In this document: positions 28,001 to 31,000 of the stretch, one piece after another | Layout of the letters: each line of letters begins with the position of its first letter | Numbering within the stretch: the first letter of the stretch is position 1 | Assembly (NCBI GenBank): GCA_963834385.1 | Contig: CAWIBO010000003.1 | Location: 96,001 to 160,000 of the forward strand | Reading direction: 5' to 3' | Length of the DNA stretch: 64,000 nucleotides | DNA from: an uncultured Verrucomicrobiae bacterium | Lineage (GTDB): Bacteria > Verrucomicrobiota > Verrucomicrobiia > Chthoniobacterales > UBA10450 | Position numbers: made by a program

Positions 28001-31000
28001 CGCACGATCACTGGGCGCGTTTGTTTAAGAAGGCGGGGCTCGATCCCGCGGTGCAGATCGTGGACGGCAACAAGAAGGACAACTTTTGGATGATGGGCGA
28101 GACCGGCCCGTGCGGACCGTGCAGCGAGCTGCACATCGACCTGACGCCGGACGGCGACACGAAAGGTGCGCTCGTGAACATGGGCGACGCCCGCTGCATC
28201 GAGATCTGGAACCTCGTCTTCATCCAGTTCAACGCCAACGCCGATGGCACATTCGTTCCGCTGCCCGCACGCCACGTCGATACCGGGATGGGTTTCGAAC
28301 GCGTCACCGCCATGATCCAGGGGACGAAAAATTTCACCGATTTCAGCGGCATCATCTCAAATTACGAGACCGATGTCTTCCGCCCGATCTTCGACGAGAT
28401 CGAAAAGCAGAGCGGCAAACGGTATAGGAGCACATTGCCCGTCCCGGGTAGGGTGGGCGTCCCGCCCGCCGGTTCAGGCGTCCCGCCTGAACGAACTTTC
28501 GCACCTGAACAAAGGACCGCGCCCCAGGCGCAAAAGACCGGGCTGCAAGATGCAGCCCTCGGCGGGCAGGATGCCCACCCTACCCGGGACAATGCCCGCG
28601 CCACGTCAGATCAGCTCGCCACCGACATCGCGTTTCGGGTTATCGCCGATCATATCCGCACCCTCAGCTTTGCCATCGCCGACGGCATCCAGCCCGGGAA
28701 CGAAGGCCGCGGCTATGTCCTGCGCCGCATCCTGCAGGCGCGCCGTCCGCTACGGCCGCACCCTCGGCTTCCACGAGCCCTTTTTCTCCAAATTGGTCGG
28801 CGTGCTCGTCCGCAGCCTGGGCGATGTCTTCCCCGAGCTGCGCGAGAAGCAGGTCACAATCGAGGAAACATTGAAACGCGAGGAAGAGTCGTTCAACAGA
28901 ACCCTCGACCGCGGCATCGAACTCTTCGAGCGCGAAGCCGCGCGCCTCTCGGGTAGGGTGGGCGTCCCGCCCGCCGGTTCAGGCGTCTCGCCTGAACAAA
29001 CTTCCGAACCCACCAAAGGCGCCACCTACACCCGTCGCCGTCGTCTCCCTCATTTCGAGCAACCATGGGCCCTCTACGCCTTGACCATTTCGACCGCCAA
29101 CCGCCGCAAACTGCCGCCGGAGTCGCGCACCATCGTCCTGGACGCCCTGCGCCATTTCGACGAATCGCGCTATACGCTTATCGCCGCCTGCGTCATGCCC
29201 GACCACATCCACGCTCTTCTCCAGCCGTGGCCAAAAGAACAGAACGAGCAGGGCGAAACGGTTTTCTGGTCGCTCAGCGAGCTGATGCACTCGCTCAAAT
29301 CATTCACGGCCAAGGAGATCAATAAGGCCGAAGGCACAACAGGCCCGGTCTGGGAGCAGGAACGGTTTGATCGCTATGTGCGTGGCGACCGGGACCTGGA
29401 GGAGAAGTTTCAGTATATCGTGACCAATCCTGAGCGGGAGGGGCTCGGGACGGACTATCCCTGGGTTTGGACTCGGGAAGATCGTTCAGGCAGGATGCCT
29501 GAACCGGCGGGCGGGACGCCCACCCTACCCGGGAGTGGAGAATCCGCCGCTCATGTCATCTCCGGTGAGTTCGCTTTCCGGCTTTACGACGAACAGGGAT
29601 TTCCGCTCGATCTCACGGAGTTGATGGCGCGCGAACGCGGTCTCACCGTTGACACCGCCGGTTTCGAGAAGCTGATGGAGGAACAGCGAACGCGGGCGCG
29701 CGCGGCGCAAAAGAAGACAACGATCGAGTTGGCGGAAGGCAGCGAAGCGGACGCACGCACCAACTTTCTCGGTTACGAGCACGACCATACCGGCGCCGAC
29801 GTGGAAGCCGTGACCCCGGCCAAGGGAAAGACTGCCGTTATTCTGAACAACACCGTTTGCTACGCGGAGATGGGCGGACAGGTCGGCGACACCGGGGAGC
29901 TGGCCGCGGGCGAGAAACGCTGGCGCATCCTCGATACCCGCAAGGCCGGCCACGCCTGGGTCCATCTCGTGGACAACGCCGACGCCCTCGCCCCGGGCGC
30001 GCACGTCACCGTGCGCTACGACGCCACCCGGCGGCGCGCCATTGAACGGCATCACACCGTGACCCATCTGCTGCACTGGGCGCTGCATGAGATCGTCTCG
30101 CGCGAAGCCGTGCAAAAGGGCAGCTATGTGGGCCCGGAAAAGCTCACCTTTGATTTCTCGAGCGCGCCCCTGAGCAAAGACCAGGTGGCCGCGGTGGAAA
30201 AAAGGGTCAACGAACGGATCGCGGAAAACGCCCCGGTTTCGTGGACGGAGATTCCCTACGCCGAGGCCAGGAAGCGCGAGCGATATCCAGCAATTTTTCG
30301 GCGACAAATACGGCGAAAAAGTCCGGGTGGTGCAGATCGGCGGCAAGGCGGGAGAATTGAACGGCTACTCGATGGAACTCTGCGGCGGCACCCATGTGCG
30401 CGCCACGGGCGAGCTGGGCTGGTTCAAGATCACTGGTGAAGCCGCCATCGCCGCCGGTATCCGGCGCATCGAGGCTGTCGCGGGCACGGCCGTGGCCGAC
30501 TGGGCCCGGACGGAAAGTGCCCGTCAGGACGAGCGTTTCTCCGGTTTGCTGCGCAAGAAAAATGAGCTGCCGCCGTTGCCGGAGATCCGGCAATGGGATC
30601 AACCGGCGACGTTACTGGAAGAGATCGAGGCCCGGGCGACGCATTTGCGCCGACTCGAAGGCGAGGTGCACGACTGGGAAAAACAGCAGGCCAAGGCGGC
30701 CGAATCCGCGTTGCAACAGCGCGCCGCTGCGGTCGCGGAGGAGCTGGCCGGGAGCCTGGCCGGGGCGACGTCGTGCGTGGCCCATGTGCCGGAGGCTGAA
30801 GGCAACCTGCTCCAGGCCGTGGCTGACCTTCTCAAGACCCGGGTGCCGGGCCCGGTGGTCCTGGCCGGCTCGCACGACGGCCGGGTGCACCTGGTGGCGA
30901 ACGTGCCGAAGGGCGTGACCCCCGGGGCCAATCAGATCATTCAGGAGATGGCGCCGTTGGTGGGGGGCAAAGGGGGCGGCCGCCCGGAAAACGCCCGGGG

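Follow-up and report, generated by a model that had tools for sequence, protein, structure and literature searches.

The alaS locus and its insert

The DNA analysed here (hereafter the window; 64,000 nucleotides, positions 96,001 to 160,000 of the forward strand of contig CAWIBO010000003.1, assembly GCA_963834385.1) comes from an uncultured soil Verrucomicrobiae bacterium of the family UBA10450, and contains the single alaS gene that was detected in this genome by a match to the TIGR00344 profile. The gene is read in three successive frames (Table 1). The 5' ORF matches the Pfam tRNA-synt_2c domain (5e-116) and positions 1-309 of TIGR00344; the middle ORF, stop-free across 28373-30439, passes from AlaRS sequence through an insert and back into AlaRS sequence, with TIGR00344 positions 305-374 and 377-632 flanking the insert; and the last ORF (30327-31070) matches the Pfam tRNA_SAD and DHHA1 domains and positions 636-846 of the profile.

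The insert is a REP-RAYT-REP cassette, namely a RAYT transposase of the Y1/HUH type between inverted REP hairpins, and the open frame together with the located arms confirms the claim of the initial annotation that it is complete and lies in the alaS frame without a stop. The RAYT has neither a start nor a stop codon of its own, the frame being continuous with AlaRS on both sides, and thus does not have the form of a free-standing gene; a conserved Met ahead of the RAYT core is likewise absent in the aligned relatives. A promoter scan of the locus returned no site on the + strand and one on the - strand versus 0.6 expected, no more than in shuffled sequences, and a terminator scan of the same region was uninformative (eight terminator-like sites versus 5.1 expected). 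The transposase-less REP doublet (REPIN) that had been reported in frame further upstream is also present, at a position that we term AlaRS loop site 1.

Table 1. Features of the alaS locus, in window coordinates
Feature	Position	Strand	Basis or remark
alaS 5' part, frame 1	27568..28735	+	AlaRS catalytic core; ends at +1 frame break ~28735
REP doublet (REPIN) without transposase	28441..28590	+	in frame, AlaRS loop site 1
alaS middle part, frame 2	28736..30277	+	tRNA-recognition and editing region; contains cassette
REP-RAYT-REP cassette	28946..29535	+	in alaS frame, stop-free
Left REP	28946..29005	+	GGGTAG foot and two hairpins; translated; inverted repeat
RAYT (Y1/HUH) core	29051..29485	+	NF047646 profile, AF2, Foldseek
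Right REP, inverted copy	29476..29535	-	translated
alaS 3' part, frame 3	30278..31070	+	tRNA_SAD and DHHA1 (C-Ala) domains; starts after second +1 break

Earlier the alaS frame had been described as changing once; the upstream break stands, but there are two +1 breaks. The DNA reads 'ctgcAggcgc' at the first, where relatives encode LRRAVRYGR, and 'cgcGagcgatatc' at the second, where they encode K(E)RSDI. Both are probably assembly errors; indel errors are present in the window's assembly, and frame breaks also occur in leuS and in the uvrA-like gene. Among contigs of three soil DNA runs from one study (shares 0.06-0.12), whose cover is patchy and absent over 29194-29435, none bridges either break. 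Given these breaks in its own alaS, it is by comparison with relatives that this genome would encode a full-length AlaRS-RAYT fusion.

A repeat-induced chimera of alaS and a transposase, arising in assembly or binning, would fit these indel errors, the repetitive nature of the REPs and the presence of two alaS genes in one relative (G149). Yet the same architecture recurs in 25 other genomes and in 567 proteins of 612-1948 aa that match the RAYT domain in a public collection (JGI, ENA and NCBI assemblies, with contigs up to 4.0 Mb); the junctions fall at the same residue; and public soil contigs are identical to the window across the left junctions, at 28270-28482 and 28945-29032. We therefore regard such an artefact as exceedingly improbable.

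The embedded RAYT domain

With the NF047646 REP_Tyr_transpos profile (cut-off 80), the 196-aa insert (28949-29536) reaches 79.5 bits (E 2.2e-22), which upholds the 79.6 bits first reported, and 76.0 bits when read inside the 688-aa frame; the accompanying Pfam Y1_Tnp match, at 22.9 bits, lies 0.1 bit under its cut-off of 23. The motifs of the Y1/HUH fold are present, with H86-I-H88 at 29204-29212 and Y156-IVT-N160-P161 (YxxxNP; catalytic Tyr codon at 29414-29416), and across 114 sequences H86, H88 and Y156 show little or no variation. The sequence of the insert retrieved nothing from PDB chains at E <= 1. In an AF2 model of the insert, residues 35-179 mostly have pLDDT > 90, residues 1-34 fall below 50 and residues 180-196 are disordered, so that the REP-encoded parts are predicted to be disordered linkers. 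Foldseek places the E. coli RAYT bound to its REP hairpin first (4er8_A, E 5.1e-07), followed at ranks 2-30 by IS200/IS605 TnpA structures (ISDra2, IS200, IS608). An AF2 model of a relative's full-length AlaRS-RAYT, built on a 24-row alignment, again suggests that disordered linkers flank a folded RAYT core, and with a mean pLDDT of 69, a pTM of 0.36 and a catalytic core partly below 50 it is unfit for domain placement.

As conserved sites in essential genes are the niche of inteins and group I introns, we considered whether the insert is lost on the way to the working enzyme, be it by protein splicing, RNA splicing or DNA excision in most cells. Y1 transposases of the IS200/IS605 group do excise precisely, which would suit such a removal. 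Against this, no Hint or intein domain is found by Pfam (E <= 0.01); the residues at the junctions, Gly/Ser ... Pro-Gly, differ from genome to genome and are not the Cys/Ser/Thr ... His-Asn of inteins; and Rfam yields no family at E <= 1 across 27400-31200. Moreover, removal from RNA or DNA leaves unexplained the selection for an in-frame, stop-free state in > 100 copies. We accordingly deem removal in any of these forms highly improbable.

REP hairpins at the termini and across the genome

The two arms of the cassette are inverted, 60 nt long and 90% complementary, and terminal inverted repeats of 23-67 nt with 80-97% identity were present in 24/24 alaS cassettes examined. The flanking hairpins carry the GTAG-type 5' foot of RAYT-associated REPs. 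Folded as ssDNA, the left REP forms two hairpins (-18.6 kcal/mol, z -5.3) and the doublet one long hairpin (-65.1 kcal/mol, z -11.6), the arms of the latter (28441-28471 and 28560-28590) being inverted, 31 nt long and 94% complementary. The ends of the doublet match those of the cassette over 69 nt (90%) and 45 nt (80%), and loop site 1 holds a whole RAYT in some relatives (e.g. P0005). Just outside the GGGKAG feet, pyrimidines prevail on the left side and purines on the right, a pattern that does not define a target sequence and merely prolongs the inverted repeat.

Across 40 REP ends from 23 cassettes, 96.2% of the cells in the two-hairpin structure are paired, against 74.0% in shuffles and 31-48% in slid controls. 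Changes on both sides were seen at 12 of the 17 hairpin pairs and the covariation score was reached by 0 of 500 shuffles, the structure in these comparisons being derived from those very sequences and the two ends of any one cassette not being independent rows. The REP hairpins of embedded copies are thus kept by compensatory changes.

The genome contains a dispersed cognate family: a 27-nt REP core, with <= 5 mismatches allowed, has 24 copies (10 exact), many of them in inverted doublets. The initial annotation had rightly recognised such a family, although we count 16 loci instead of its 17. Its observation of eight elements in frame inside genes is reproduced in full, these being a UvrA-like ORF (four), a DnaE-type polymerase, ThrRS and alaS (two); one more was located in the C-terminal tail of ThiC. 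The first REP of all eight is read in one frame, as GRVG(V/I)..., though two of the three frames are open. In each of five relatives 15-44 REP copies are present, whereas the reversed pattern gives none, and numbers this low are weak evidence for ongoing transposition.

Recurrence at the alaS site and in other host genes

A RAYT occupies the same alaS site in 25/200 other genomes of the family, and in 19 of these 25 the gene is a single frame of 1114-1329 aa; the earlier tally of 7/29 loci had correctly noted the shared site and the single frames and differs from ours in the count. In the five high-quality relatives that were checked, the insert-bearing alaS is invariably the sole alaS, encoded in one frame of 1114-1236 aa in which TIGR00344 is split between 374/375 and 375-379. 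This single-copy state and the uninterrupted frames of the relatives support the original view of the transposase as an internal domain of an essential enzyme.

Among closely related alaS hosts, some carry RAYTs or REPs of another type and others have nothing at the site. Four host-tree clades are rejected by the RAYT data (p-AU 1.9e-12 to 7.8e-4), these clades having been chosen for the AU tests after the flank peptides had been seen to differ. Such conflict between the RAYT and AlaRS trees indicates that the site has been occupied repeatedly.

The same clade of RAYTs is present in 114/201 genomes, at 1-3 copies per genome, and lies in frame not only in AlaRS but also in ThrRS, RecG, MetH, CarB, a DNA methylase and an aminotransferase, with fixed insertion sites in ThrRS and RecG and two sites in MetH. 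Among the 567 matching proteins are AlaRS, ThrRS, RecG, MetH, a methylase and an aminotransferase. Frames of at least 600 aa were found in 127 of the 150 genome matches listed. For the leuS-type RAYT, matches in 131/150 genomes had been given initially; we find 79/201 at E <= 1e-20, and the thresholds may differ. Free-standing relatives of ~217 aa exist, so that members of the clade need not be embedded. The alaS case exemplifies a pattern that spans the family and several host genes and in which the same sites are repeatedly occupied, a scope that the initial annotation understated.

Selection on the embedded copies

In 158 non-redundant embedded domains, HUH is kept in 148 (94%), the remaining 10 lacking a recognisable motif, and the catalytic Tyr in 155 (98%). 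For the RAYT core, dN/dS could be estimated in 8 of 12 pairs and is 0.066-0.149, with dS near saturation (1.06-1.59), compared with 0.05-0.30 for the AlaRS flanks. Embedded RAYT copies are under purifying selection, and these values, the motif conservation and the fold similarity to 4ER8 bear out the description of the motifs as intact.

These observations bear directly on the notion of a dead passenger, in which the domain would be inactive and would persist only because its removal harms the essential gene. Nesting in an essential frame would indeed slow loss, the REP doublets found in frame at those sites resemble decay products, and the REP copy numbers are low. However, a relic should drift at non-synonymous positions, whereas the RAYT core evolves under constraint equal to or stronger than that on the AlaRS flanks, its catalytic residues are retained at the above frequencies and its hairpin stems are maintained by compensation; we give this explanation very little credence.

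Purifying selection would be expected equally if the domain benefits the host. Hence, a domesticated domain, kept for host benefit through REP processing in genome or mRNA biology or through moonlighting of the carrier, rather than as a selfish element, would be in keeping with the selection and the conserved catalytic residues, as well as with the presence of merely 1-3 RAYTs per genome. RAYTs are also reported to be domesticated, vertically inherited, single-copy genes (PMC8266576; bioRxiv 10.1101/2021.07.10.451892). On the other hand, unrelated carriers (aminoacyl-tRNA synthetases, a helicase, MetH, CarB, a methylase and an aminotransferase) share the domain, its presence is patchy both at alaS and for the clade as a whole, with empty sites in close relatives, and its tree conflicts with that of the host. 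Carriers, patchiness and trees do not suggest a role tied to AlaRS, but are compatible with a genome-level benefit of REP processing. Overall, we consider domestication unlikely, though the likeliest of the alternatives.

A proposed explanation and its implications

In light of the anatomy, conservation, selection, hairpin covariation, multi-host distribution and tree conflict described above, we propose as the probable explanation that a selfish REPtron sits within alaS, in frame, where the gene encodes a surface loop, is expressed as an internal domain of AlaRS, and persists by way of the essential frame. This REPtron comprises a REP hairpin, the RAYT tyrosine/HUH transposase and an inverted REP hairpin in one frame open from end to end. 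Its expression, we infer, depends on the promoter and ribosome-binding site of alaS, and the transposase would be made as a ~145-aa internal AlaRS domain held by two disordered Gly/Pro/Ala-rich tethers of ~17 to 35 aa, which would be the translated REP hairpins. AlaRS, we suggest, would keep its function since the insert takes the place of a loop of four residues that links two helices. By homology with the E. coli TnpA-REP, the RAYT domain would recognise and cut its own REP hairpins in ssDNA, and this cutting may maintain or mobilise the small REP/REPIN family of the genome and, on an evolutionary time scale, the cassette itself.

Nesting in an essential frame would provide the element with free expression, and would protect it against frameshifts, nonsense mutations and imprecise deletions because these would kill the host gene. 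The few permissive sites, namely alaS (two), thrS, recG, metH (two), carB, leuS and a few others, would then be occupied, lost and re-occupied by different RAYT lineages, and the in-frame REP doublets at alaS site 1 and in thrS of this genome may be deletion relics. A bolder reading, which we hold to be evenly poised between true and false, is that RAYT cassettes of this kind are a distinct 'frame-riding' class of transposon that is open over its full length, resides in essential proteins as an internal domain, fills an intein-like niche without splicing and homes repeatedly to a few permissive loops across bacterial orders, its terminal hairpins doubling as flexible-linker codons and the carrier supplying expression and protection. 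If that is so, the carrier enzymes would be natural HUH fusions able to bond covalently to ssDNA.

RAYTs and their REPs or REPINs are textbook 'extragenic' elements whose very long persistence is debated. A transposase translated within an essential enzyme would represent a new strategy of persistence, in that a frameshift, a stop or a sloppy deletion is lethal to the cell. This would also account for the clustering of in-frame REPs in a few housekeeping genes, which was left unexplained in 2013. Surveys that drop overlong Y1 transposases on the assumption of erroneous fusion would have lost real biology. The carriers point to natural loops that tolerate an insert of ~200 residues in AlaRS, ThrRS, LeuRS, RecG, MetH and CarB. 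HUH-enzyme fusions are used in biotechnology as HUH tags, and the alaS-type RAYTs would be their natural counterparts. The question of selfish versus domesticated, moreover, becomes testable with simple assays.

Relationship to known systems

IS200/IS605 TnpA proteins share the fold, and the DNA ends of these elements are subterminal hairpins. The insert nonetheless scores only 20.6 bits against NF033573 (transpos_IS200; cut-off 55), its Tyr motif is YxxxNP in contrast to their Y---Q (motif classes in PMC6006769), and the alaS locus showed no tnpB. With inteins bearing homing endonucleases the cassette shares in-frame nesting in essential genes, expression and protection by the host, patchiness and repeated invasion. 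Inteins, however, have a Hint domain and splicing residues, whereas the alaS insert has neither and apparently stays in the mature protein; and in place of a homing endonuclease it has an HUH/Y1 transposase that, by analogy, would act on hairpins in ssDNA.

Parallels are also offered by the in-frame palindromic repeats, such as the Rickettsia RPEs and the intragenic GTAG REPs of Opitutus terrae and others, which PMC3733652 describes as likewise read through inside functional genes, as are the eight in-frame elements of the present genome. The classes of host gene are also alike, including uvrA (two O. terrae genes with dual inserts), dnaE2 and tRNA synthetases, and the host with the largest number of in-frame REP cases was verrucomicrobial (Di Nocera 2013). 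There, the repeats are reported to lie alone in genes and the transposase to be a separate gene whose ends may overlap REPs, whereas in alaS the whole transposase is inside the protein. Thus, in-frame REPs are known (Di Nocera 2013), and for in-frame RAYTs we found no description in the literature, the supplements of PMC3733652 (Additional files 3 and 4) and PMC6006769 aside; such nesting is a widespread and apparently undescribed habit.

The closest counterpart is the REPtron itself, as represented by E. coli yafM (PDB 4ER8) and the REPIN-RAYT systems of Pseudomonas, with which the alaS cassette has in common the Y1/HUH fold, the HUH and YxxxNP motifs, the inverted REP hairpins with a GTAG foot, a dispersed cognate REP/REPIN family and 1-3 copies per genome. 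Unlike the known REPtron, which is a free extragenic gene, the alaS RAYT is without its own start and stop and has its REPs translated as linkers, and RAYTs of its type lie in frame in essential and housekeeping genes, at few recurrent sites, with a phylogeny that conflicts with that of the carrier.

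Architecture of the alaS insert

A complete REP-associated tyrosine (Y1/HUH) transposase (RAYT), flanked by inverted REPs, is nested in frame within alaS, which a genome-wide check shows to be single-copy in this genome. The initial annotation allowed for one frame change in this gene, but we observed two breaks, giving three parts in three frames (see table). Based on the nature of these breaks, both being single-base insertions in a non-homopolymer context, on the comparable breakage of leuS and of a uvrA-like gene, and on the state of the assembly (2.9 Mb in 5 contigs), we regard them as probable assembly errors; no public contig spans either one. 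The recA ORF just upstream ends in an unusual Arg/Gly-rich tail, which may be another assembly frame break.

Coordinates of features in the window and of in-frame REP or Y1 elements elsewhere in this genome (G000)
Feature	Coordinates	Strand	Remarks
recA ORF	window 25764-26840		upstream of alaS
alaS, first part	window 27568 to about 28735	+	own frame
alaS, second part	window about 28736 to about 30277	+	inside ORF 28373-30439
alaS, third part	window about 30278 to 31070	+	third frame
REP doublet	window 28441-28590		in alaS frame, AlaRS loop site 1; arms 31 nt, 94% complementary
REP-RAYT-REP cassette	window 28946-29535		in alaS frame, AlaRS loop site 2; arms 60 nt, 90% complementary
UvrA-like tandem (L076)	G000:C2:783349-789651		2101-aa open frame; two UvrA-like units, four in-frame REP doublets
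leuS (L083)	G000:C2:732144-736500; 1411-3324 and 1-999	-	in-frame Y1/RAYT-like domain (RNLPHW...MPNHVHVL...)
ThiC (L082)	G000:C5:292114-294264		translated REP at its end

The 196-aa insert scores marginally below the cut-offs of NF047646 (79.5 bits against 80) and Pfam Y1_Tnp (22.9 against 23) and far below that of the IS200 model (20.6 against 55), and a phmmer search of PDB chains returned no match. An AlphaFold model built from 114 sequences has pLDDT >90 for most of residues 35-179, and its best Foldseek match (4er8_A, E 5.1e-07) is the E. coli REP-associated tyrosine transposase with a REP hairpin bound, followed by the ISDra2, IS200 and IS608 transposases. The 114-row alignment shows little or no variation at H86, H88 and Y156 (YIVTNP). 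Sequence and predicted fold hence agree with the initial identification of the insert as a RAYT. Residues 1-34 and 180-196, with pLDDT <50, coincide exactly with the REP-encoded parts; in terms of this model, the cassette REPs play two parts, forming hairpins in DNA and coding for predicted disordered linkers.

In each cassette arm two small hairpins follow a GGGTAG foot, the left arm having a predicted fold of -18.6 kcal/mol (z -5.3). The separate REP doublet, which had been noted together with the cassette and was likewise recovered, is predicted to fold as single-stranded DNA into one long hairpin (-65.1 kcal/mol, z -11.6). Its ends and the cassette ends share matches of 69 nt (90%) and 45 nt (80%), so that it looks like a cassette minus its transposase. 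Terminal inverted repeats of 23-67 nt (80-97% identity) bound all 24 alaS cassettes examined, their sequences varying by genome. Of 42 REP ends extracted, L025L and L029R were out of register and were left out. Across the ungapped alignment of the other 40, the two-hairpin structure pairs 96.2% of cells (74.0% in shuffles, 31-48% in slid controls). Changes affecting both partners occur in 12 of the 17 pairs, and none of 500 shuffles reached the covariation score, a test somewhat favoured by the structure having been derived from the same ends. Cognate REPs are dispersed through this genome as 24 units, and five relatives carry 15-44 copies each, with none of the reversed pattern. No target motif could be defined at the insertion sites of alaS cassettes. 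A soil contig (run X2) matches from the left REP on (window 28951) and is preceded by 135 unrelated bases, so the same REP or cassette end has another context in that sample.

Distribution across relatives and carrier proteins

Alignment of a relative's fusion with human AlaRS (4XEM) at residues 1-410 and 612-652 places the ~200-residue insert, in lieu of human residues 420-423, in the N-terminal fragment responsible for aminoacylation and tRNA recognition, where it is flanked by a helix on either side; the full-length fusion model (pTM 0.36) is too poor to say more on placement. When the alaS segment was searched against 200 other genomes of the family, 189 gave a match. In 25 of them the match continues through a RAYT at this same position, and 19 of these 25 have it within a single open frame of 1114-1329 aa, as the initial annotation had held for relatives; in the remaining six the frame is 430-991 aa long, and some of these sit at the end of a contig. 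Among the 25 is G007, which is flagged unpublished, and our conclusions are independent of it. In five good genomes (89-100% complete) the insert-bearing gene is the sole alaS, with the alaS model split between positions 374/375 and 375-379 in one frame. Dismissing the nested RAYT as an artefact is poorly supported alongside these uninterrupted frames, as is its removal by splicing, and we consider it a real feature.

One bin, G149, holds two alaS genes (on G149:C203 and G149:C54), one with and one without a RAYT, suggesting a mixed bin; genus labels of bins are thus unfit for dating insertions. Five public AlaRS proteins of 1379-1408 aa (P0005, P0007, P0008, P0009 and P0011) have two RAYT domains, at loop sites 1 and 2. 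In P0005 one of these occupies the loop that holds the REP doublet in the window, and one more REP-like stretch lies in frame in its editing region.

With the RAYT portion of a 1113-aa relative as query (E <= 1e-5), 567 matches were recovered in public proteins of 612-1948 aa. Among the 120 matches listed, the carriers include AlaRS, ThrRS, RecG, an N6/N4 DNA methylase, a class-III aminotransferase and MetH, the organism labels are Chthoniobacterales and Verrucomicrobia, and source names include 'alanyl-tRNA synthetase/REP element-mobilizing transposase RayT', an automatic IMG name by which pipelines register both functions in one protein. Within the family the RAYT core has matches in 114 of 201 genomes (E <= 1e-25). 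The open frame around it reaches 600 aa or more in 127 of the 150 matches listed (21 more exist), measures 400-600 aa in 5 and does not exceed 400 aa in the other 18. The insertion site is fixed in ThrRS, between MFPPMEL and RYYLKAMNCPHHH (a set that includes the unpublished genome G155), and in RecG, between GPLPLF and IIVGTHALLYE; MetH, at two sites, and CarB are additional carriers. The initial reading of the transposase as an internal domain of alaS is thereby supported and extended to other genomes and proteins. Free-standing relatives, commonly of ~217 aa and 50-67% identical, have both REPs inside the ORF.

The leuS gene of this genome has in frame a second, more distant Y1 clade, found in 79 of 201 genomes (E <= 1e-20), with a frame of at least 600 aa around 79 of the 109 matches listed and CarB among its carriers (G171, L092). 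This domain follows the FDLPIRRVV segment and precedes a frame break; in many relatives the clade lies in frames of 1018-1480 aa.

In each of the eight intragenic REP elements of this genome, two frames are open across the first REP, and it is always the same one (GRVG...) that is used; the chance of this is ~0.004 if the eight are independent. A REP remnant lies exactly at the ThrRS insertion site in thrS. The four doublets of the UvrA-like tandem all read GRVG..., and its C-terminal end looks frame-shifted. ThiC has an internal insertion of ~60 aa relative to its Pfam model. The peptide of this insertion, …RRDAQSPHSRDGRAP…, is similar to REP types seen in other genomes, and in-frame reading here may therefore extend to a further REP family.

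Evolutionary history and selection

A FastTree phylogeny of 274 RAYT domains requires 13 carrier-label changes among embedded copies, against 68-78 in the 10 listed of 100 shuffles, pointing to inheritance mostly within a carrier. The AlaRS and ThrRS clades interleave, as do AlaRS sites 1 and 2. Many free 217-aa forms, which begin MNAANS.SGSARVSR…, nest within the RecG group; given the midpoint root this would represent escape from a carrier to a free gene, a direction that depends on a root that was not itself inferred. Very close alaS hosts differ in RAYT/REP type or have an empty site (L009/L020/L021; L011/L013 versus the empty L032 and L036), and four host-tree clades are incompatible with the RAYT alignment (p-AU 1.9e-12, 1.3e-6, 7.8e-4 and 1.6e-4), which argues for repeated occupation of the alaS site or for replacement of its occupant.

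In alaS cassettes, the RAYT core gives pairwise dN/dS values of 0.066-0.149 (dS 1.06-1.59; the 8 of 12 pairs giving an estimate), compared with 0.05-0.30 for the AlaRS flanks, and amino-acid identity is 72-87% versus 60-90%. Among non-redundant embedded domains the HUH motif is kept in 148/158 and the tyrosine in 155/158, and among short forms in 112/116 and 108/116, respectively. Against this background the view of the insert as a dead relic is poorly supported. The main rival is a domesticated REP-processing domain of benefit to the host, which is compatible with an element riding in the host's frame.

Proposed mode of persistence and relation to known elements

As judged from its sequence, the cassette is a REPtron (REP-RAYT-REP) that stays open in frame from end to end and is carried along within the coding frame of an essential gene. 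We propose that the carrier gene would provide expression, that its essentiality would guard against frameshift, stop and sloppy deletion, and that the AlaRS-RAYT fusion would be the active enzyme. A full-text literature search, which for the Di Nocera and Quentin papers covered the main text, found no description of a RAYT/Y1 transposase sharing the frame of a host protein; REP/RAYT elements as such are known, and this way of life is apparently undescribed. The in-frame REP part is already known from Di Nocera et al. 2013 (PMC3733652), which reports GTAG REPs inside genes, mostly in the verrucomicrobium Opitutus terrae (both uvrA genes, dnaE2 and tRNA synthetases), and likens them to the RPEs of Rickettsia.
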